Source: an uncultured delta proteobacterium
GTDB taxonomy: Bacteria; Desulfobacterota; Binatia; UBA9968
Assembly: GCA_963727625.1 (NCBI GenBank)
Contig: CAVSHR010000012.1
Span: forward strand, 576,001-640,000
Length of the DNA: 64,000 nt
Reading direction: 5' to 3'
The translations under genes were made by a program, and so were the position numbers. Under the pieces are notes generated by a model. That model saw only the letters and a program-made list of their open reading frames with translations. It was not told the origin of the DNA and did not search any database. Shown here piece by piece: positions 28,300 through 40,091 of this stretch; positions within the stretch are counted from its first letter, which is position 1; every line of letters starts with the position of its first letter.

Positions 28300-28669
28300 T
28301 GTCTCTGTCCGCAAACAGGATCGCTACGTGGCGAAGCGGGTCACTTGGGAGATGCCCACTGGAGGGGTTCATTCCGGGGAAAGCGTCGAGGATGCCGCGC
28401 AGCGAGAATTAGGAGAAGAGGTTGGTTACCAAGCAGGTCGCCTCAAATGGGTCTCAACCTATCACGCCAGCAAAAGCGTTATGGATGAAACCGCGCACCT
28501 CTTTTGGAGAAGACCTGGCGGAGCTTAGGCTCGATTCTGACGAACCCGAGTTCATCGAGGCGCAACCAGTTCCTTCAAAAAAGTTGTTCAAATGGTTCTT
28601 GCGAGCGAGATTCTGGACAGCATGACAGTTATAGCCATTCCTCATGCTGCCCGCATGAAAGGAATTTAG
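28300..28669 (+). pseudogene. Frameshifted, 5'-truncated NUDIX hydrolase (ADP-ribose pyrophosphatase-like)
   Basis: WEMPTGG..GESVEDAAQRELGEEVG Nudix box, continuing in other frames (DSDEPEFIE..; EILDSMTVIAI). Confidence 0.75.
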
Positions 28670-30314: not shown

Positions 30315-31037
30315 ATGAAAGGCGCCCACCACTTATCAGAATCTCTCCTTCCCGACGCTCCAGTGCTACCTCGTTTTTTGTGTCCTAGTTCCATGGCCCA
30401 AACTGATCGGCGCATTTCTGGATTTTTTTGTGACCTTGCTTTATAGCGCCATCAATAGCGAATTGGGAAGACCGCCCACCCTAGGGGAGAGCCCTTTGAA
30501 TGTCTCCGGTCTCCATGCAGGCATCTTTCTAGTATCGCTGATTTTTGTGATTGACTGGGAGCTTGAGCGGTTCAATCTCAAAGGCGCCGGAGCGCCGTTA
30601 TTTATTCTACTCACAGGCAGCCTAGGCGCTCTGAGCGCGATGTCATACAGAAGGATTGCGTATCTCTGGCGAGTGCCCGAAGGAAACATGATCGGAATGC
30701 AGTGCCTGGCCATGGCTGCTGTCTTGATTTTTCCGATGCTATGGCTGCCCCGACGCTTAATTGGCGACCGCCGCAGCGGCTGGCTCTGGATCATCGGTCT
30801 TTCCTTCTCAGCCACGGCGATGTTTGCCTACACCATCATCCATGGAAATTGATCTATTCCGCCGATTTCGATCTGATCCAGCTCTACAATATCGTGGAAG
30901 ATCCCCAGGAGAGAAGAAATCTTTGGCAAGAAAATCGCCAACTTGCGGCTGAGATGGAAAGAGAGCTGATGGGCTATCTAAAAAAAGCGGCGGGAAAATC
31001 CTACCGGCCACTGCTTTCGGACGCTCCTGCCCGATAG
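30315..31037 (+). pseudogene. Membrane-anchored sulfatase/LTA-synthase-like remnant with frameshifts and deleted catalytic core
   Basis: TM N-terminus followed directly by a sulfatase C-terminal motif (IIHG/WKLIY...QLYNIVEDPQERRNL) across a frameshift at about 30845. Confidence 0.65.
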
Positions 31038-31239: not shown

Positions 31240-32892
31240 ATGCAAGCGACTGCTAAAGCGATCGGCGACCATTCTGCAGCAGAAATCAGGCAATTGGTTC
31301 GCGACAAGTATTCTGAAGTCGCGCTCAAGCCGGGCTCAAAATACAAGTTCAGGGTCGGTCGCGAGTATGCGATCGAGCTCGGCTATCCCCCTCAAAAGGT
31401 TCAAGCGCTTCCGGAGAAATTGGCTGAGGCCTTTACCGGCGTCTCTTCGTTCATGGCCCGTTTCGAGGATTTCGCTCCAGGAGATGTCGTCCTCGAGCTT
31501 GGATCCGGTGGAGGATTCGACAGCGCATTACTCGCCAAACGATTCGGCGCTGCGACAAAGGTCATTGGAGTCGATTTTTCTCTCGACATGATTCAAAGGG
31601 CAGCGCGATCTCTCGGCGCGCTGGAGCTTTGCCAGGTTAATTATACCCAGGCTGTGGCGGAGGAGCTTCCCGTCCGTGATAATTCAGTGGACTGGGTTGT
31701 CAGCAACGGGATCTTCAATCTCTCCCCGGAGAAGGAGAGAATCCTGTCCGAGATTCATCGGGTCCTAAAACCCAAGGGTCACGTGCTCTGTTCCGAGATC
31801 GTTCTCTATCAGGAGCCCACTCCGGAGGAGCGTCTCAATGAAGACGACTGGTTCAAGTGAATTGCCGGCGCAATGTCGGAAAAGTCTTTTCTGACCAAAT
31901 TCATCGAGGCTGGGTTCACCCGCATAGAGATCCTGGAGAATTCCGAGAATAAACGAACGCCAAACCGCAACGCCTACGTGGTTACTCTAGCCGCGCAGAA
32001 GGCGCCCGCGGCGTTACGGGCGCCTCTTGAGCAAAAAACCAAACCCGTCCTGAATCGGGAAAACGCAGCCGAAGTCTTGAAGGAATGTTGGGTTTTTCCG
32101 GTCGCGCCGGAGACCTGCAATCTGGCGTGCACCCATTGTCTTTATGGCGCTTCGCCACGATCGCGCAATCCTTACCGTGTCACGTCCGGCGAGCTGGGCG
32201 AATTACTGGCGCAGGTAAAATCCGTCGGTGCGAAACCGCATTTTTTGTTTACCGGCGGGGAGCCGACGCTGCACTCTGAACTCTACGATTTTCTACAAAC
32301 TTTTGATCGAGAGGGCTACTCGTTCCAGCTCATGACCAATGGAACTCGGATCCAGGAAGAAAGTGCCGAGCGTTTAGCGAAGCTGTCTCATCTGATCAAG
32401 GTGCAAGTATCACTGGAATCGGCGGACGCGAAAATCAACGATTCCATTTACGGCGCCGGACTGTACGGCAGGGTCCTCAAGGCAGTGAAAGTTCTCAAAG
32501 AAAAAAATGTCCCGGTGACACTGGCGGCAACAGCCATGGAGATCAACGAGCACGGTCTCTCCGCCATCGAAGAGTTGGCCGACGCCCAGGGAGTGGAATT
32601 GAAACAGATACTTTTGTACGAGCTCGGCGCAGCCAAAGAAAACGGCTTGAAACCGGCGCAGCAAATTCCAACCGACAACGGTCAAAGGGACAGAGAACTG
32701 ATGTGTGACAAAGGGGTCGCCTATTCCGAGGGAGCCTTCTACCCGTGTCCCGTGCTGGTCAAGGAGCCGCAGACGAAATTAGGCGATAGTTTAGAGCAGG
32801 CCTTGAGTCCGGAGTCACGCCGTAAAGTGACCGGGTTGCAGGAAACGCACGCTGCCTGTCAGGTTTGCCTTAAAGGCTCCACGTGAGCGTAG
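31240..32892 (+). CDS. Predicted selenoprotein: ArsM-like methyltransferase-radical SAM fusion, 550 aa, Sec207 and Sec549
   Basis: ORFs 31240-31860 and 31873-32886 are in one frame, split only by TGA in DWFK*IAGAM (ArsM W-x-x-C-x-x-GA). It carries ELGSGGGFD, CNLACTHC and TGGEP motifs. The C-terminus is HAACQVCLKGST*A-TAG. SECIS-like hairpins follow both TGAs. Confidence 0.8.
31858..31903 (+). promoter_or_regulatory. SECIS-like element 1
   Basis: Upper stem GTCGGAAAA/TTTTCTGAC (31875-31895, one G-U pair) with a GTC loop; TGAATT (31858-63) can pair with AATTCA (31898-903). Confidence 0.7.
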
Positions 32893-32896
32893 GCAA

Positions 32897-32913
32897 GCGC
32901 TCCGTAGGAGCGC
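32897..32913 (+). promoter_or_regulatory. SECIS-like element 2
   Basis: Perfect 7-bp stem GCGCTCC/GGAGCGC with a GTA loop, 17 nt long, after a 10-nt spacer from TGA 32884-86; no U-tract. Confidence 0.65.
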
Positions 32914-32967: not shown

Positions 32968-34029
32968 ATGAATTCAACCGACCCCAAGACTCGAATCGCC
33001 TATTTCAAGACCATCGATGGCCAAAGTCGTAGCGCGATGGCGACTCTCGATCCGGTCTGCCTCTACCTCGAGGTCAGCAACCAGTGCAACCTGTTATGCA
33101 AGACCTGTCCCATTACCTACGGCAAAGTGGAGGAACCCGCCTCGTTGAGCTTTGATCAGATCAAGCGCTTGGTCGCCCAATTCCCCACGGTCGAGCGCGT
33201 GGTGCTCCATGGTGTTGGAGAGCCGCTTCTCAATAGGGAACTGGCCAAAATTATTCTCTGGCTCAAGGGCAAGGGGATCTACGTTCTTTTCAATTCGAAC
33301 GGCACATTGATCAATAAGCGCTGGCGTGAAGCGCTCGTCGGATCGGGACTCGATGAAATCCGGCTCTCCCTTGACGCAGCAACGCCGGAGACTTTCGCGC
33401 GGGTGCGCGGCAAACGGCTCTTTGCCGTTGTCGTCAGGAATATCCAAGGCCTGATGGCCCTCAAGGCAGAGACAGGACTGCGCACACCGCTCGTTTCACT
33501 CTGGCTGACGGGGTTGAGAGAGACTCTGAAGGAGCTCTCGGATTTCGTCCGGTTGGGCCATTCTCTGGGGATCGACCGGGTATACCTCCAACGGCTAGTT
33601 TATTGGGACGGCAACGGCAATGATCGGCTGGCCCGTCCAGAGCAATCTCTGTTCAATTCCCTGCGAGAAGAAGGCGATCAGGTGATCAAGTCGGCGGAGG
33701 AATTGGCCCGTTCGCTGGGGATCTCTTTTGAAGCATCCGGAGCAACCACTCCTTCGACTAGCCTTGTGGGTGAAAACTTCGACCAACCCTGGTCAGCCTG
33801 CATGCGTCCCTGGACACTCATGTACATTAGCGCCCGGGGAAGCGCATTTCCCTGTTGCATTGCCCCTTTCTCGACGGCAGATCTAAGCCATCTCTCTCTC
33901 GGGAACGCGTTCACACAGGATCTGGCCTCCATATGGAATGGAAAGCGTTATCAAGAATTCCGCCGCCGGCTCCTGAGCGCTGAACCGCCTGAATGCTGCA
34001 AAGGTTGTGGCGCCTGTTGGAGTTTGTGA
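32968..34029 (+). CDS. Radical SAM/SPASM domain protein
   Basis: CNLLCKTC and GVGEPLL motifs; SPASM CMRPW...GSAFPCC...LGN..IWNG..CCKGCGAC. Confidence 0.92.
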   Translation: MNSTDPKTRIAYFKTIDGQSRSAMATLDPVCLYLEVSNQCNLLCKTCPITYGKVEEPASLSFDQIKRLVAQFPTVERVVLHGVGEPLLNRELAKIILWLKGKGIYVLFNSNGTLINKRWREALVGSGLDEIRLSLDAATPETFARVRGKRLFAVVVRNIQGLMALKAETGLRTPLVSLWLTGLRETLKELSDFVRLGHSLGIDRVYLQRLVYWDGNGNDRLARPEQSLFNSLREEGDQVIKSAEELARSLGISFEASGATTPSTSLVGENFDQPWSACMRPWTLMYISARGSAFPCCIAPFSTADLSHLSLGNAFTQDLASIWNGKRYQEFRRRLLSAEPPECCKGCGACWSL

Positions 34030-34033
34030 TCGC

Positions 34034-34768
34034 ATGAAGATCGAAAGCGGCGGCAAGAACAAAAGTCGAGCTCTGGTGGTCGTTGCCAAAGCGCCGTTAC
34101 AGGGTCTTGTCAAAACGCGGCTTTATTCCTACCTCAGTCCTGTAGACGCCGCCGGCCTCTACGAGTGTTTGCTCGGCGATATCGTCTCCAAGTTGGAGAG
34201 CTACGAAAAGAGCGAATTTTGGCTTGCCTTTGCGCCGGGAGGTGAAGACTATTTCCGCCGAAATTACTCGGCGATGAGACTGCTCGCTCAGCGCGGCAAA
34301 GATCTCGGCGAGCGGCTCCATCACGTTTTTGTGGATCTCTTCCGCAGGGGTTACAGCGAAGTCGTCATCGCCGATAGCGACAGTCCCACGGTGCCGCTTT
34401 CGTCTATCGATCAAGCCTATCAACAACTCAACGAACAAGAATGTGATCTGGTCCTGGGACCATCGGACGACGGCGGTTATTACCTCATAGGCCTCAAGCG
34501 TGCCACGGAACGGATTTTTTACGATATCCCGTGGAGTACCCATAGAGTGCTCGATACCACCTTTAAGAGGGCGGCTGAGCTGGGGTTAAGCGCGGGGCTT
34601 CTCCCTCCTGCCTATGACATCGACATAGAGGATGACCTCAGGAGACTGTGGAATGATTTTTTGGCTCTCAAGCACCTCCGGGCGCTAGCCCCGAGAACCT
34701 ATGACTACCTGAACAATGTCCTCGGCGCCGGATCTTTGCAGGTTCGTGCTTTAACCGAAATCGATTAG
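34034..34768 (+). CDS. DUF2064/TIGR04282-type glycosyltransferase-like protein (rSAM/selenodomain-associated)
   Basis: AKAP..G.VKTRL, QRGKDLGERL, DSDSP, LGPSDDGGYYLIG, IPWST and DIDIEDDL motifs. Confidence 0.9.
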   Translation: MKIESGGKNKSRALVVVAKAPLQGLVKTRLYSYLSPVDAAGLYECLLGDIVSKLESYEKSEFWLAFAPGGEDYFRRNYSAMRLLAQRGKDLGERLHHVFVDLFRRGYSEVVIADSDSPTVPLSSIDQAYQQLNEQECDLVLGPSDDGGYYLIGLKRATERIFYDIPWSTHRVLDTTFKRAAELGLSAGLLPPAYDIDIEDDLRRLWNDFLALKHLRALAPRTYDYLNNVLGAGSLQVRALTEID

Positions 34769-34778
34769 GAGGCTCAGA

Positions 34779-35318
34779 ATGGCCGCAGCCGTTAGTTCCG
34801 TCGGGATTCGAGACCTGGCTCTTTGGGCTGGTCTTTATCGAATTGCGCTCGGGATTATGTGGCTGCAAATGGCCTTACAAAAAGCGCCCTGGATCATGGG
34901 GCCCGAGGGAAGGCCCTACGGTTGGCTCTACGGTTACATCTGGAAGGAAATCAATAATCCGACCTTTACTTTTTACACCGAGTTTCTGAAAAATATAGTG
35001 CTTCCCAATTTTTACTATTTTGGTTTGTTGACCTTCGTCGTTGAGATCGCAATCGGGGTGTCACTGGTGCTGGGTTTTTTAGTTCCTCTGATCGGCGGTC
35101 TCGGCGGCGCCCTCATGCAAACCAATATCATGCTCGGCAGTTACAGCATTCCGAGCGAGTGGTTTTGGCTTTGGCCCATGCTGATCGGCAGTCACGTCAT
35201 CTTCATGATGGGTAGAGCCGGCCGCCGTCTCGGATTGGATGGCCTCCTTTCAAGCTCTCTTGAGCACTCCCCTGATACAGGAGGCAAGTTGAGACGATTC
35301 TTGACCTATGTCGTGTAG
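34779..35318 (+). CDS. DoxX/TQO small subunit (DoxD)-like membrane protein
   Basis: RIALGIMWL..ALQK, EIAIGVSLVLG, EWFW and AGRRLGLDG motifs; AGGAGG RBS. Confidence 0.8.
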   Translation: MAAAVSSVGIRDLALWAGLYRIALGIMWLQMALQKAPWIMGPEGRPYGWLYGYIWKEINNPTFTFYTEFLKNIVLPNFYYFGLLTFVVEIAIGVSLVLGFLVPLIGGLGGALMQTNIMLGSYSIPSEWFWLWPMLIGSHVIFMMGRAGRRLGLDGLLSSSLEHSPDTGGKLRRFLTYVV

Positions 35319-35347
35319 TTGCATTCGCGCAGTCGGGCTATAGCAGG

Positions 35348-36853
35348 ATGATCCGATTCATTACCAGAAACAAAGTCTGGGTATTAGGACTGCTCTCCGC
35401 AGCCATCTACGGCATGAATTTGCGCATGGCTGACGTGCTGGTCCGCCTTGAGATCCTCGATTCTGCACCGGACCCCATAGCGTCTTACTTGATCCAAATC
35501 GCGCCTCTGAGTCTAATCTATTTTCTGGCCGTGTGGATGACGGCACGTGCGCAATACGCCAAGAAGACTTTGACGCCCATTATCCTGTTTGCGCTGTTGT
35601 TCCGACTGCCTCTGATCCTTTTAGAGCCCGCCCTCTCCAGTGACGTCTATCGCTACCTTTGGGAAGGGAAAGTGCAAATTGTTGCCGGAATGAATCCCTA
35701 CGTCGTGCCGCCGGCGGACGACCGCCTTGCCTCTCTACGGGATCAAGCGATTTATCCTCACATCAATCGCAAGGAGGCGCCGACGATCTATCCTGCAGGC
35801 GCGCAGCTCCTTTTCGCCCTACTACACAAGGCCGGCGTCGAAAGCCCCCAGGCATTCAAAGCTCTGTCCCTTGTTGCCGATGCTCTATCGCTGCTTCTCC
35901 TGCTTTTAATCCTTAAGCGACTCCATTTGCCGCTTGACCGCGTTATCATCTACGCGTGGAATCCTCTCCTTATCTATGAGTTCTTTTGGAGCGGCCACCT
36001 GGAAAGCTTCATGTTGCCTCCCCTGCTGGGCTTTATCTATTTTACCCTTCGGGGTTGGGTGCTAGCTGCCGGTGTCGCCCTCGGCCTCGCGACAGCGATT
36101 AAACTAGTCCCCCTGTTTCTTCTGGCAACCGTGCCTCCGGGCAAGAGGATTAGGACAGTAATCCCTTTTGTCTTTGTTCTGGGGCTTGCTTATATCTTTT
36201 ACGCCGCAGCGGGGACGAGGATCCTGGGCTTTCTTCCAACCTATTTCTCTGACCCATACGAGATTTTCAATCTCGGCATCGTCCAACTAGGTTTGTTACG
36301 GGTGGTGCAGTCATTTTCATTTCCCGTCTCTTGGGTTCGTAACATTCTTCTCGCCCTCCTGCTTGCGATCCTAATGATGATCTCACGGCGCGCCCCCAAT
36401 TCCCCTGCGGACATTATCGGGAGAAGCTACGCGACCTTTAGCGCCTATCTCTTGCTCATCTATCCCGCTTTTCATCCCTGGTACTTTTGTGCGCTTGTGC
36501 CCTTGTTATGCTTCGTCCCGTCGCGAGCTTGGATCTGCTTCTCCTTGCTGCTCCCTCTGTCTTACTTTAAATACCTCACGCCAGACGGAACGATGCCATT
36601 GTGGATTACGCTCGCAGAATTTGCCCCTTTGTATCTGCTCCTGGTCCGGGAACACGGCCGGTTTCCAATTTGGCTAAGAAAGCGCCAGGCGTCCAGCGGC
36701 GCTATAAACGAGAAATGCGACGGCAAAGAAATTCCAAGCCGCGAACTAAAAGAGCGCCTCCTCTTAGACGATCAGACCGGAGAATTACTGCCTTGCATGT
36801 CGGCGATAACCGCCTTAGCCACAGTCAGGCGAAGCCGTAAAAGAAGGGAATAG
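35348..36853 (+). CDS. GT-C membrane glycosyltransferase (GT87/DUF2029-like)
   Basis: LSSDVYRYLWEG, NPY..PP, PTIYP, YAWNPL, GHLE and HPWY motifs. Confidence 0.85.
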   Translation: MIRFITRNKVWVLGLLSAAIYGMNLRMADVLVRLEILDSAPDPIASYLIQIAPLSLIYFLAVWMTARAQYAKKTLTPIILFALLFRLPLILLEPALSSDVYRYLWEGKVQIVAGMNPYVVPPADDRLASLRDQAIYPHINRKEAPTIYPAGAQLLFALLHKAGVESPQAFKALSLVADALSLLLLLLILKRLHLPLDRVIIYAWNPLLIYEFFWSGHLESFMLPPLLGFIYFTLRGWVLAAGVALGLATAIKLVPLFLLATVPPGKRIRTVIPFVFVLGLAYIFYAAAGTRILGFLPTYFSDPYEIFNLGIVQLGLLRVVQSFSFPVSWVRNILLALLLAILMMISRRAPNSPADIIGRSYATFSAYLLLIYPAFHPWYFCALVPLLCFVPSRAWICFSLLLPLSYFKYLTPDGTMPLWITLAEFAPLYLLLVREHGRFPIWLRKRQASSGAINEKCDGKEIPSRELKERLLLDDQTGELLPCMSAITALATVRRSRKRRE

Positions 36854-36857
36854 CTCA

Positions 36858-38435
36858 GTGGCAACCGGCATTTTAGAATCAATTTTTTACTACAGCCTCG
36901 GCGCGCTCTACCTTCTGTGCCTGAGCGGGCTCTTTCTCTACGGCACCAACTGCTATGTTCTGCTCCTGCTCTTTCGCCGAAACCGCAGCAAAGGCGAGAA
37001 GGAGTATCGCGACGCTCTCGATAACTTTGAGAACTCCCCCTGGAAAAACGACCTCCCTCAGATCACGGTACAACTGCCGATCTACAACGAGCGCTATGTT
37101 GTCGCTCGGCTCATGAAAGCTGTCAGCGCCCTGGATTACCCGCGCGACCGATTGGAGATTCAGCTCCTCGACGACTCCACCGATGATTCCGTGGAGATCA
37201 TCAGCCGGCTGGTCGCGGATTATCGGAAAGAGGGCTTCCCTATCGTCCATCTCCAGCGAGCAACCCGACAGGGCTTTAAAGCAGGCGCGCTTAGGGAAGG
37301 CATGGAGACAGCGCGTGGAGAATTTTTCGCCATTTTCGATGCCGACTTCGTTCCCCCGCCTGACTTTCTGCGCAAAACCATTCCTTACTTCTTGAATGCC
37401 AAAGTCGGTATGGTGCAGGCGCGGTGGAGTCACATCAATCCCAACTATTCGCTTCTGACACGCGCGCAGTCGATTGGAATCGACTCGCATTTTTCCATCG
37501 AGCAAGGCGCCCGAGCCTGGTCGGGCCTTTTTCTCAACTTCAACGGCACCGCAGGTGTATGGAGACGGCAAGCCATCGTTGAAGCTGGAGGCTGGCAAGC
37601 CGATACTCTCACCGAGGACATGGACCTAAGCTATCGAGCTCAACTAGCGGGTTGGCGGATGAAGTATCTCTTGGAAGTGGCGTGCCCGGCAGAACTGCCG
37701 GTGCAGGTGGCTGCATTTAAATCGCAACAGTTTCGTTGGGCAAAAGGCTCCATCCAAACGGCACGCAAAATAATGCCCGCTCTGCTTAGGGCGCCCTGCT
37801 CAAATTTCGCCAAGTGGCAGGCCATGCTCCACATGACTCACTACGTCATCCATCCGCTGATGCTGGTCACTATTTTGCTTTCCTATCCGGTAATCCTTAT
37901 CCAGGATACTGAGTCAAGCCCCTGGCTGTTGGCCGGCGCTTTCATTTTATTTCTATCGGCGACGTTGGCCCCCTCGACTTTGTATCTTGCGTCGCAAAGA
38001 TTTCTCTACCCGGACTGGCGCACCCGGATACGTTGGATCTCGCTTATGACACTGATCGGCACGGGCCTCTCGTTAAACAACGCGCGAGCGATTTTGGAAG
38101 GGCTGTTCCTTTCCGGCGGAAACTTCGTGCGCACTCCGAAGTTCGGCGTCTTTCCTGGCGACGATTTGCGCGGACGGATAATAGGCTATGGTCTCAAGAT
38201 GGGTATGCTGCCATGGCTCGAGTTGGCTATCGGAGTTTATGCGCTATTTGCACTGACTCAAGCCATTAAAACTCCGGGCATACTGATCAGCCCATTCCTG
38301 CTGATGTACACGTGTGGTTTTTTCTATATCGCGCTCAAGGGAATCGGCGAATCGCTGGACTGGAAGATCGGCAAGTACCGACCCCCACCACCGCCCACCG
38401 CATCCACTGTGATCGAGCAACACGATGGCACCTGA
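36858..38435 (+). CDS. Processive GT2 glycosyltransferase (cellulose synthase-like/CslA-type)
   Basis: TVQLPIYNE, LDDSTD, GFKAGAL, FDADF, TLTEDMDL and QQFRWAKG (D,D,D,QxxRW) motifs. Confidence 0.92.
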   Translation: MATGILESIFYYSLGALYLLCLSGLFLYGTNCYVLLLLFRRNRSKGEKEYRDALDNFENSPWKNDLPQITVQLPIYNERYVVARLMKAVSALDYPRDRLEIQLLDDSTDDSVEIISRLVADYRKEGFPIVHLQRATRQGFKAGALREGMETARGEFFAIFDADFVPPPDFLRKTIPYFLNAKVGMVQARWSHINPNYSLLTRAQSIGIDSHFSIEQGARAWSGLFLNFNGTAGVWRRQAIVEAGGWQADTLTEDMDLSYRAQLAGWRMKYLLEVACPAELPVQVAAFKSQQFRWAKGSIQTARKIMPALLRAPCSNFAKWQAMLHMTHYVIHPLMLVTILLSYPVILIQDTESSPWLLAGAFILFLSATLAPSTLYLASQRFLYPDWRTRIRWISLMTLIGTGLSLNNARAILEGLFLSGGNFVRTPKFGVFPGDDLRGRIIGYGLKMGMLPWLELAIGVYALFALTQAIKTPGILISPFLLMYTCGFFYIALKGIGESLDWKIGKYRPPPPPTASTVIEQHDGT

Positions 38436-38450
38436 GAAGACTCCTTCGAT

Positions 38451-40091
38451 ATGAGATTCTTAAAAATGTCCTTCCGCGCCAACTGCCTGATACGAGCGGC
38501 GGCCCTTCTGTTTCTGCTTGCGACCCTGACGCCGCTCGCTGTGGTCCTGGGGCAGAAACTTTTGCCAAGCCCGTGGCCGACCTACCGCGGCGATCTCAAG
38601 CGCACAGGGCGAAGCGATTATAAAGGTCCAACGACCAATCAGCTCCGCTGGGTTTTCTCGACTGGGCTCGCCGAGAAGCGTGGAGGCATCGAGACAGATC
38701 CCGTCATCGGTCCTGACGGAACCGTTTACATCGGCGCCAACAACGGAATTATTTACGCGTTGAACCCTGAAGACGGCTCGATACGCTGGGTTTTTCCCAC
38801 GGCTTTTGACACCTTCGCGATCTATTCCAGTCCGAGCGTCGACCAGCAGGGACTCGTCTACTTCGGCGCCAAAGATGGCAACGTTTATGCGCTGAGGGCG
38901 CCAAAACGCGGAATCATGGGGGAATTGGTCTGGTCTCTCAACCTCGGCACTACAATACAGACTTCACCGGCTTTTACACCGGACGGAACTCTCGTGATTG
39001 GTGCCGACGACTGGGCTTACTATGGGATCGCACCTCCCCGGGACGGGACTGGCCCCAGGATAAAGTGGCGCTTCCAAACGCAGGGTACATTGATTACGTC
39101 GCCGGCCGTCGACTCTGACGGGACGATTTTCGTGGCGTCGATGGATGGAAAAATTTATGCTCTGGAGCCGCCAAAGGATGCGAGCCAGCAGCCGGTCAAA
39201 GTCCGCTGGAGCTTTTCTTCGGGCGCGCGCGACGATCGGGGAGGCTTTGAAAACGCGCCCGCCGTCGACAAGCAAGGGACTCTTTACATGGGCGGAAATG
39301 ACGGAATTTTTTACGCTCTGGACAGCAAGACAGGCAAAGTCAAGTGGACGTTCGATGGCGTCGCGCGTTCGGGTTATCGAACCTACGCGATCTTTTCTTC
39401 TGCCGCGATCGGCCCGGATCGGACAGTATACTTTGGTGGGAAGAACGGCGATCTTTACGTAATTCGCCAGCAGCAGGCTTTCTTTCGCTCAGGCCCGCAA
39501 GTCCTCTGGCGGTACAAACTGGGAGCAGGGATTCAATCTTCTCCGCTCCTCGCGGCTGACGGAACCGTTTATCTTGGTGACGAGCGTGGCACCTTGCACG
39601 CCATCAGACCGCCTGCTTCCGGAGAAGCGGGAACAACCTTGTGGAAATTTTCCACAAAGGGAACATTGATCTCTTCCCCTGCTCTTGCTGCTGACGGAAC
39701 GCTCTACGAAGGTTCCATGGACGGGAAACTCTATGCCTTTAAGTCTGGGGCCGCAAAGCCCGGCGCCGAGGGTCCTTTCTCAGGAACCTGGTATGGAACC
39801 TATGAAAGCCAGCTAATCTCTGGGCAGGTGAGAGCTGTCCTTCGACAAGAAGGCACACAGGTTTGGTCCGCTTGGTTCCTTGAGGGAGTAGGGCGCGGAG
39901 AGGGACAGGCAACTGCCCTGGACAACCGTCTGATATTTTCACTGCCCATAAAAACGGCCCGCTGTCGGGGAACTGTTCGCGGCGAGGGTCAAAGGGACGG
40001 GAATCGAATCCGCGTCGATGTCCGGATTGATCAATGCGGAGGAAAAATCGTAGGCGGTAAGCTCACGATGCGCAATAGCTTGAAAAGGTAA
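38451..40091 (+). CDS. Exported PQQ-like beta-propeller repeat protein with C-terminal beta domain
   Basis: Signal peptide, WPTYRGD, repeated SSP...DGT.Y.G..DG..YA..W units. Confidence 0.88.
   Translation: MRFLKMSFRANCLIRAAALLFLLATLTPLAVVLGQKLLPSPWPTYRGDLKRTGRSDYKGPTTNQLRWVFSTGLAEKRGGIETDPVIGPDGTVYIGANNGIIYALNPEDGSIRWVFPTAFDTFAIYSSPSVDQQGLVYFGAKDGNVYALRAPKRGIMGELVWSLNLGTTIQTSPAFTPDGTLVIGADDWAYYGIAPPRDGTGPRIKWRFQTQGTLITSPAVDSDGTIFVASMDGKIYALEPPKDASQQPVKVRWSFSSGARDDRGGFENAPAVDKQGTLYMGGNDGIFYALDSKTGKVKWTFDGVARSGYRTYAIFSSAAIGPDRTVYFGGKNGDLYVIRQQQAFFRSGPQVLWRYKLGAGIQSSPLLAADGTVYLGDERGTLHAIRPPASGEAGTTLWKFSTKGTLISSPALAADGTLYEGSMDGKLYAFKSGAAKPGAEGPFSGTWYGTYESQLISGQVRAVLRQEGTQVWSAWFLEGVGRGEGQATALDNRLIFSLPIKTARCRGTVRGEGQRDGNRIRVDVRIDQCGGKIVGGKLTMRNSLKR

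Follow-up and report, generated by a model that had tools for sequence, protein, structure and literature searches.

We analyzed a 64,000-nucleotide (nt) stretch of DNA (hereafter the window) from an uncultured delta proteobacterium of the class Binatia (GenBank assembly GCA_963727625.1, contig CAVSHR010000012.1, positions 576,001 to 640,000 of the forward strand), centering on a gene whose annotated TGA stop very probably encodes selenocysteine (Sec), as the penultimate residue of the product. With this codon (U549) and a second in-frame TGA further upstream (U207) both read as Sec, the gene would encode a single 550-residue protein fusing a methyltransferase to an enzyme of the radical S-adenosylmethionine (SAM) type, and, provided that both codons are recoded, this two-Sec product is strongly supported by comparison of related loci. 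The initial annotation of the window had proposed such a two-Sec enzyme with a Sec insertion sequence (SECIS) in its 3' untranslated region, and the sequence reads exactly as described there: the annotated TGA is followed by GCG and TAG, with a 10-nt spacer and a perfect hairpin. The first TGA that it implies is likewise present and has a hairpin of its own. Feature coordinates are collected in Table 1.

Table 1. Features of the methyltransferase–radical SAM gene and its surroundings (window coordinates).
Feature	Position	Strand	Remarks
Whole coding sequence	31240..32892	+	Single 550-residue frame once both TGA codons are read as Sec
First Sec codon U207, in W-F-K-U-I-A-G-A	31858..31860	+	At the last As-binding Cys of ArsM (CmArsM C224 equivalent); aligned with ArsM structures 5evj and 5eg5
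Candidate SECIS for U207	31875..31895	+	9-bp stem, GTC loop 23 nt after TGA; z only -1.9; stem kept in relatives
Radical SAM CxxxCxxC motif, C293/C297/C300	32116..32139	+	PF04055 match; invariant in the alignment of relatives
Twitch/SPASM-type Cys C489-x8-G-x4-C503 ... C540-x2-C543	32704..32868	+	Probable auxiliary Fe-S ligands
Second, penultimate Sec codon U549 (G-S-T-U-A-stop)	32884..32886	+	TGA in 17/17 distinct loci; aligned to a Cys in the all-Cys group and to the GSSC Cys in ArsS
Last Ala codon GCG (32887-32889) and true stop TAG (32890-32892)	32887..32892	+	Codon pattern of 17 loci
Candidate SECIS for U549, wholly intergenic	32897..32913	+	Perfect 7-bp stem; GTA triloop 17 nt after TGA; 10-nt spacer after TGA
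Second radical SAM/SPASM gene	32968..34029	+	Conserved downstream of the fused form; ordinary stop
TIGR04282 (CofC-like 'arsenosugar biosynthesis glycosyltransferase')	34007..34768	+	173 bits vs cut-off 134; most constant neighbor
Downstream run: DoxX-like, GT87-like, GT2 glycosyltransferase, PQQ-like beta-propeller	34779..40091	+	DoxX and GT87 matches below cut-off; present in only part of the related loci
NUDIX hydrolase remnant	28301-28666	+	65% identity with the intact L014 neighbor over its residues 78-200; lacks the N-terminal part; over two short open reading frames
Membrane sulfatase-like gene remnant	30343-31031	+	Residues 13-61, 260-375 and 825-887 left of 888; intact in L014

The terminal TGA is invariant and followed by a translated-like codon

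The comparison of gene ends started from 25 loci, four of which lack the end of the gene, one of which breaks off inside the codon and three of which are duplicates, leaving 17 distinct loci (the window included) that represent at least three families. Each of the 17 reads TGA followed by one codon for Ala or Gly and a stop. The codon after TGA is Ala in 15 loci (GCG 8, GCT 4, GCC 2, GCA 1) and Gly in two (GGG), and the stop that follows it is TAG in ten, TAA in six and TGA in one. A fixed TGA combined with near-synonymous drift of the next codon and free drift of the stop is the pattern predicted by a translated U-A-stop end. The next gene downstream serves as an internal control, its stop being TGA in 5 of 10 loci and TAA in the other 5, with no conserved codon or hairpin. 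Since an ordinary stop drifts, as that of the next gene does, the fixation of the TGA at 32884 argues against a plain stop.

Among the relatives, one locus (L025:1856-1864) reads TGA-GCG-TGA, so that its true stop is itself UGA and lies six bases closer to the hairpin. Loci L015 and L106 (G171) have identical sequence over the 48 bases 3' of TGA; here a record titled Acidiferrales matches a genome assigned to the family of the window, and the title may be a mislabel.

An intergenic hairpin with the properties of a bacterial SECIS

The hairpin past the true stop has a predicted folding energy of -14.8 kcal/mol (z -3.3), equaled by none of 200 shuffles. A counterpart is present in all 17 loci, with a stem of 5-9 bp and the loop 16-20 nt after TGA. 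With the loop chosen by best pairing and not by the presence of G, its first base is G in every locus and its second G in ten and T in seven. The automatic DNA alignment of the 17 rows was out of register for five more distant ones, and stem covariation was therefore counted on the remaining 12, in which 94% of the cells are paired and five cells are changed on both sides. None of 500 shuffles reached the observed paired fraction, two-sided cell count or covariation score, 60 of 500 reached the two-pair count, and slid controls were paired in 22-65% of cells. Four of the six pairs are invariant and the rows are kin, so we take the covariation as support and not as a probability. The proposal of a SECIS in the 3' untranslated region is thus borne out to the extent that the hairpin is conserved, covaries and lies entirely past the stop codon. 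With Sec in penultimate position, the hairpin stands at a normal bacterial distance from its UGA and yet outside the coding sequence.

The element also agrees with the bacterial SECIS (bSECIS) constraints set out in PMC13188914. Its 7-bp stem and 3-nt loop lie within the ranges for upper stem (4-16 bp) and loop (3-9 nt), G occupies the leading part of the loop, where the consensus asks for it at position one or two (mostly as G[G/U]), and both the UGA-to-loop distance of 17 nt (16-37 nt) and the folding energy (at most -7.5 kcal/mol) conform. The hairpin of the relative L014 is weaker, at -6.7 to -7.8 kcal/mol.

We considered two other identities for the hairpin. A repetitive extragenic palindromic (REP) element, which would be a genome-wide repeat, was rejected: the 6.6-Mb genome holds one exact copy, one further match at up to two mismatches and, for the degenerate family pattern, five places in total. 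An intrinsic terminator was likewise rejected, as the initial annotation had anticipated in calling the hairpin a poor one; an A-rich tract follows the stem, and the terminator scan lists it on neither strand. By a crude rule, such hairpins follow fewer than 1% of long open reading frames (ORFs), namely 26 of 2752 ending in TGA, 14 of 2208 in TAA and 11 of 1833 in TAG, and the full arrangement of TGA, one codon, stop and hairpin occurs at 2 of the 2752 TGA ends, one of them being the window site.

Rfam yielded no SECIS match, its two hits being chance ones (E ~9). A covariance model built from the 12 in-register rows recovered the window hairpin, as it must by construction, and missed all five hairpins held out from the more distant clade, in which stem lengths are different; it adds no support.

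An alternative fold was predicted at 32876-32911 (+), in which the UGA and GCG codons pair with the 5' arm of the candidate SECIS, a consequence of the same five bases recurring in the 3' arm. Most of the 17 loci have comparable predicted folds over the UGA, which may be a by-product of the origin of the hairpin or may influence readthrough.

Sec machinery and other selenoprotein candidates of the host

The genes selA, selB and selD are grouped on contig C5 of the same genome, all scoring above cut-off and selD carrying an in-frame TGA itself, and a tRNA-Sec is present. Of the 13 carrier genomes, 12 have selA. A genome scan for internal TGA codons flanked on either side by coding-like sequence and followed by a hairpin (loop search range 15-37 nt) returned 27 candidates with G[G/T]N-loop hairpins on contigs C2-C14. 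In 20 of the 27 the loop lies 17-21 nt from TGA, and the U549 hairpin (17 nt, 7 bp, GUA) is of the same type as these other candidate SECIS. From their motifs we take several candidates to be AhpD-like, GrdB-like, OsmC-like, peroxiredoxin, rhodanese and GST-like proteins. The host genome thus appears to be rich in selenoproteins.

Haft and Gwadz (10.1101/2022.07.06.499078) describe what may be expected of a selenoprotein family. Sec machinery is encoded by the host, as just described; against the ten or more examples all having TGA at the site, 17 of 17 distinct loci do so here; and alignment of the TGA with a conserved Cys holds only through homologs of ~30% identity, no Cys form being found among the 120 close homologs.

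Close relatives, distant Cys counterparts and distribution

These 120 homologs, listed by protein search at 53-100% identity, include the window's own protein. One is a fragment, and the other 119 end at CxxC-x-[K/R]-G-x-[T/S/A]; none continues with Cys. The fused order of methyltransferase and radical SAM domain recurs among the relatives, and four stand-alone radical SAM genes keep the terminal TGA and hairpin, which places U549 in the radical SAM domain and not in the fusion as such. Titled relatives are mostly Candidatus Binatia. Carriers number 13 of 401 genomes in a sample of the class, none of 30 of the same genus and none of 300 others in a sample of the phylum, and plasmids gave no match at E 1e-20; the distribution of the family is patchy.

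The initial annotation had looked to a C-terminal alignment for a Cys two or three residues after the Gly. Such a Cys, three residues after the Gly, is indeed found, in distant homologs only: at ~30% identity, ten proteins, and by pattern 15 of 72 distant loci, end in C-x2-C-x3-G-x2-C plus a short tail (hereafter the all-Cys group), the rest of the 72 belonging mostly to other radical SAM families. In a global HHalign comparison, C489, C503, C540, C543 and U549 fall in register with this group's five C-terminal Cys (100%, E 1.7e-51), and likewise with those of ArsS, where U549 matches the GSSC Cys (97%, E 1.4e-10). The spacing from CxxC to the last Cys or Sec is 5 in the window protein, 6 in the all-Cys group and 7 in ArsS. 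In a quick tree, which is only suggestive, the family would form one clade (99), with the all-Cys group and ArsS together as its sister (90) when rooted on other radical SAM hits.

Members of this ArsS-like all-Cys group lie at L053:2899-5831 and in loci L029, L036, L040, L046, L056, L073, L077, L085 and L098. Four members were scanned, and none passed an NCBIfam cut-off among the families shown. In L053 the gene stands behind ArsM and a TIGR04282-like gene; in L068, L070 and L081 a member precedes what we take to be a metallophosphoesterase-like gene. Three further homologs (P0122, P0271 and P0272) have a TusA-like N-terminal domain (PF01206 in two cases) instead of the methyltransferase, and the same end residue. 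Another, P0129, is a 272-residue radical SAM protein, 31% identical, that ends three residues after CxxC-x-x (…G-I-T) and is possibly another truncated Sec form.

The two halves of the fusion

Family and domain matches divide the protein into a methyltransferase (residues ~1-250) and a radical SAM/Twitch domain (residues ~271-550). Predicted from its single sequence, the structure of the whole fusion was too low in confidence to be used (pLDDT, the predicted local distance difference test score, 39.8). None of the 25 best NCBIfam families shown matches the 550-residue protein above its cut-off.

For the methyltransferase domain, the best-scoring families are all ArsM-type models (167-189 bits). 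Canonical ArsM was nevertheless rejected as its identity although the SAM motif is present, at 167 bits against the NF008823 cut-off of 263 and with one of the four ArsM Cys. The TGA of U207 occurs in 20 of the 25 loci examined, the other five being stand-alone radical SAM loci; the pattern used for this site could find only a stop there. No full-length Cys fusion was found among homolog proteins of 302-963 residues. Elsewhere in the genome, G000:C9:271668-272390 (+) encodes a second, stand-alone methyltransferase of the single-Sec type, 34% identical, with S-N-G and W-A-A-TGA-I-G-G-A. In L071, L072, L093, L094 and L095, for which tails only are available, the radical SAM protein apparently continues into a C-terminal ArsM-like methyltransferase, in the order opposite to that of the window fusion.

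The four Cys that follow the SAM core of the second half are invariant in 52 aligned proteins. A model of this domain (pLDDT 90) has SkfB (Z 23.6, root-mean-square deviation 2.9, 258 residues aligned) and BlsE (Z 22.3, 3.5, 256 residues) as nearest folds. The domain combines the radical SAM core and truncated SPASM fold of a Twitch enzyme, with C-x8 one residue below the range in the quoted motif, C-x(9-15)-G-x4-C ... CxxC, and Pfam SPASM gave no match to the protein; in PMC6231123, the source of this definition, the BtrN Twitch domain ligates one cluster with four Cys. The whole layout, C-x8-G-x4-C ... C-x2-C-x5-U, resembles positions 1-5 of the SPASM motif. On the simplest reading, C489, C503, C540 and C543 would bind an auxiliary Fe-S cluster and U549 would be left free, so that any free metalloid-binding role would at most be confined to U549. 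This divides the earlier proposal of a metalloid-binding arm H-x2-C-x2-C-x2-G-x2-U: the part concerning U549 may stand, and the arm as a conserved unit does not, its His being found in 74 of 119 homologs (Lys in 38) and its CxxC belonging more likely to an auxiliary Fe-S site with the two upstream invariant Cys.

Comparison with known systems

Assignment of the protein to the ArsS type, also suggested in the initial annotation, fails: TIGR04167 scores 44 bits against a curated cut-off of 300, and the protein is a distant relative with the same Cys layout only. TrsS (NF045646) was also rejected, at 54-56 bits against 490 and over the SAM core only. With ArsS the window protein shares the radical SAM core, the succession C...C...CxxC...G-x-x-C/U in register, a TIGR04282 neighbor and an ArsM-type partner; it differs in its separate clade in the quick tree, in a tail spacing of x5 versus x7, in its penultimate Sec and in the fused methyltransferase. 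The characteristic ArsS ending, CxxC followed by G-x-x-C/U, is therefore present in register with other spacing, and U549 falls at the GxxU site given for ArsS selenoproteins in Table 1 of PMC13188914. ArsS adenosylates dimethylarsenite (DMAs(III)) to DDMAA, and the C-terminal Cys of ArsL bind As(III) and are needed for activity, according to PMC13598754 and 10.64898/2026.04.29.721666. ArsL is likewise a radical SAM enzyme with an ArsM partner, and its As(III)-binding C-terminal Cys are needed for C-As bond formation; it has a CCxxC tail and makes a 3-amino-3-carboxypropyl (ACP) radical, whereas the window protein has CxxC-x5-U behind a Twitch fold; no ArsL model is among the listed matches of the latter.

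Double selenoproteins with an ArsM-like domain, Sec at the UxxG site and a fused C-terminal part are known as ArsM/AhpD (NF041537), MTase/UXPK-star (NF047649) and ArsM/DUF2284 (NF041536), with 3, 2 and 2 Sec listed, respectively. The partner domain in the window protein is a radical SAM enzyme instead, and its scores of 170-189 bits fall short of their cut-offs of 460-575. Terminal Sec with the SECIS past the true stop is known from DUF466/KCU-star (NF033934) and SaoC (NF040734), as stated in PMC4607533 and 10.1101/2022.07.06.499078, the latter adding that PGAP is unable to call C-terminal Sec. Both families are likewise overlooked by gene callers, but are small Cys-Sec-COOH proteins, whereas the window Sec is penultimate, follows G-x-x and ends a 280-residue Fe-S enzyme domain; we claim no homology. 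SkfB (6EFN), BlsE (7VOB) and BtrN (4M7S) share the fold of the modeled domain and the C-x-G-x4-C ... CxxC layout, but at 17-20% identity and with no RRE domain in the window protein; a shared function is not implied.

The decoding signal would thus be an ordinary bacterial SECIS, and the family and its architecture appear to be new. The radical SAM entries in the accessible 119-family table of PMC13188914 are ArsS and TrsS, with no methyltransferase–radical SAM fusion, and a third radical SAM selenoprotein, with a CUAEP tail, is mentioned in 10.1101/2022.07.06.499078. A term search of PMC13326102 found no mention of the family, the ESM Atlas gave generic radical SAM clusters only for our query, and literature searches, taken at the level of their listings, gave no description of the fused family, which the text or supplements of Haft and Tolstoy 2025 could still mention. 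This methyltransferase–radical SAM double-Sec family, related to the arsenic-sugar enzymes, is seemingly uncatalogued.

Gene neighborhood and a separate arsS locus

The TIGR04282 gene is found in 11 of 16 related loci, the other five ending before its place, and stands directly downstream in all four stand-alone loci. Upstream, a NUDIX gene is a frequent neighbor of the family. A true Cys-form arsS with arsM is encoded on contig C9 of the same genome, presumably together with TIGR04283-like and TIGR04282-like genes (so named from their sequences), and arsS, full or partial, occurs in 6 of the 13 carrier genomes.

Discussion

We propose that SelB, with GTP and Sec-tRNA, would act on the G-loop hairpin at 32897-32913 to recode UGA 32884 as Sec, after which one Ala would be added and UAG would end translation. 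The protein may then combine the work of ArsM and ArsS in a single chain. The alignment suggests that its N-terminal domain would methylate a trivalent metalloid bound to U207, As(III) being the likeliest; motif and fold suggest that C293, C297 and C300 would hold the SAM-cleaving cluster and C489, C503, C540 and C543 an auxiliary cluster of the BtrN type. The third step is the least certain: U549, on a short mobile tail and at the position of the last Cys or Sec of ArsS, would capture methylated As(III), which needs one chalcogen only, and offer it to the 5'-deoxyadenosyl radical, forming a C-As bond. Judging from gene context, the TIGR04282 protein, the second radical SAM enzyme and the glycosyltransferases may convert the product to a surface or lipid-linked compound, probably unlike the product of the separate arsM-arsS locus. 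To the whole chain, from Sec decoding through ArsS-like chemistry with U549 as substrate holder, arsenic included, we assign a probability of roughly 0.45.

Several points weigh against this proposal. The support for Sec decoding is comparative; the 17 loci are kin, so that their counts and covariation are not independent; and the figure of 12 of 13 genomes with selA covers carriers only. The methyltransferase keeps one of the four ArsM Cys (CmArsM 44, 72, 174 and 224), only 224 and that as Sec, with G-V-S for G-C-G and S-N-G for S-N-C; since a working definition of ArsM in PMC5552862 requires at least three of the four, arsenite is not secure as the substrate. Similarity to ArsS is weak outside the SAM core (BLASTP, 29% over 132 residues only), the full-length match having required global profile alignment, and the low confidence of the last four residues of the domain model (pLDDT <50) is in part artificial, as the final two residues are missing from most aligned rows. 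The related loci listed showed no ars resistance genes, and the genome already has a full arsM-arsS locus.

Two alternatives accept Sec at UGA 32884 and differ on what it does. In the first, which we regard as possible but doubtful, U549 would ligate the auxiliary Fe-S cluster, either completing one Twitch cluster in place of another Cys or joining C540 and C543 on a three-ligand, open-site cluster. C540-x2-C543-x5-U549 has the CX2CX5C spacing of SPASM cluster ligands, a further point against a free U549, and the nearest folds, SkfB and BlsE, are SPASM/Twitch enzymes, SkfB having five C-terminal Cys, the most terminal of which serve as ligands (PMC6231123). However, the four invariant Cys already suffice for a BtrN-type cluster, and the variable spacing of 5, 6 or 7 between CxxC and the last Cys or Sec fits a flexible tail better than a fixed ligand.

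In the second, to which we give similarly little credence, the substrate would not be arsenic but selenium, antimony, sulfur or an envelope sugar or lipid, with U549 in a redox or a sulfur- or selenium-carrying role. The three missing ArsM Cys, the three homologs with a TusA-like domain replacing the methyltransferase, and the glycosyltransferase, NUDIX and sulfatase-like membrane protein neighbors favor such a substrate, and for TIGR04282 the link to arsenic comes from the name of the family only. Against this stand the best matches of the methyltransferase, all ArsM-type models, and the Cys layout and TIGR04282 partner common to ArsS and the ArsM-linked all-Cys group.

That TGA 32884 is an ordinary stop, with TGA-GCN-stop acting as a fail-safe pair of stops and the hairpin between the two genes serving mRNA stability or processing, is very improbable. 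In its favor, every gene caller ends the protein there, the close family yields no Cys version, and the hairpin is intergenic with a 5' arm that can alternatively pair with the UGA region. Against it, the TGA is fixed where the next gene's stop drifts, the following codon is coding-like, the loop keeps its G and its distance of 16-20 nt even in stand-alone genes with other neighbors, and an end at Thr548 would drop a residue that is Cys in related groups.

Returning to U549 as substrate holder, a bolder form of the proposal, which we consider distinctly unlikely, is that the Sec-terminated radical SAM clade forms carbon-metalloid bonds in parallel to ArsS. In the fusion, the mobile terminal Sec would take methylated As(III) straight from the single-Sec methyltransferase site, perhaps replacing the lost Cys, and deliver it to the radical site, in a Se-to-Se channel leading to an arsenic-containing glycolipid or surface compound.

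For the family itself, a SECIS past the stop is free of coding constraint, such that its loop G, stem and distance can be changed with the protein unaltered. Databases split the family at U207 and shorten it at U549, the 119 close homologs with an intact end stopping two residues early, and expression of the protein as annotated would therefore lose the residue most likely to matter. If the proposed reading holds, these bacteria would possess a second ArsS-like radical enzyme beside a TIGR04282 gene, often in addition to an arsS present in the genome, and the family may offer a lead on how organoarsenic biosynthesis proceeds in its later steps, on its alternative products and on the role of the terminal Cys or Sec of ArsS.

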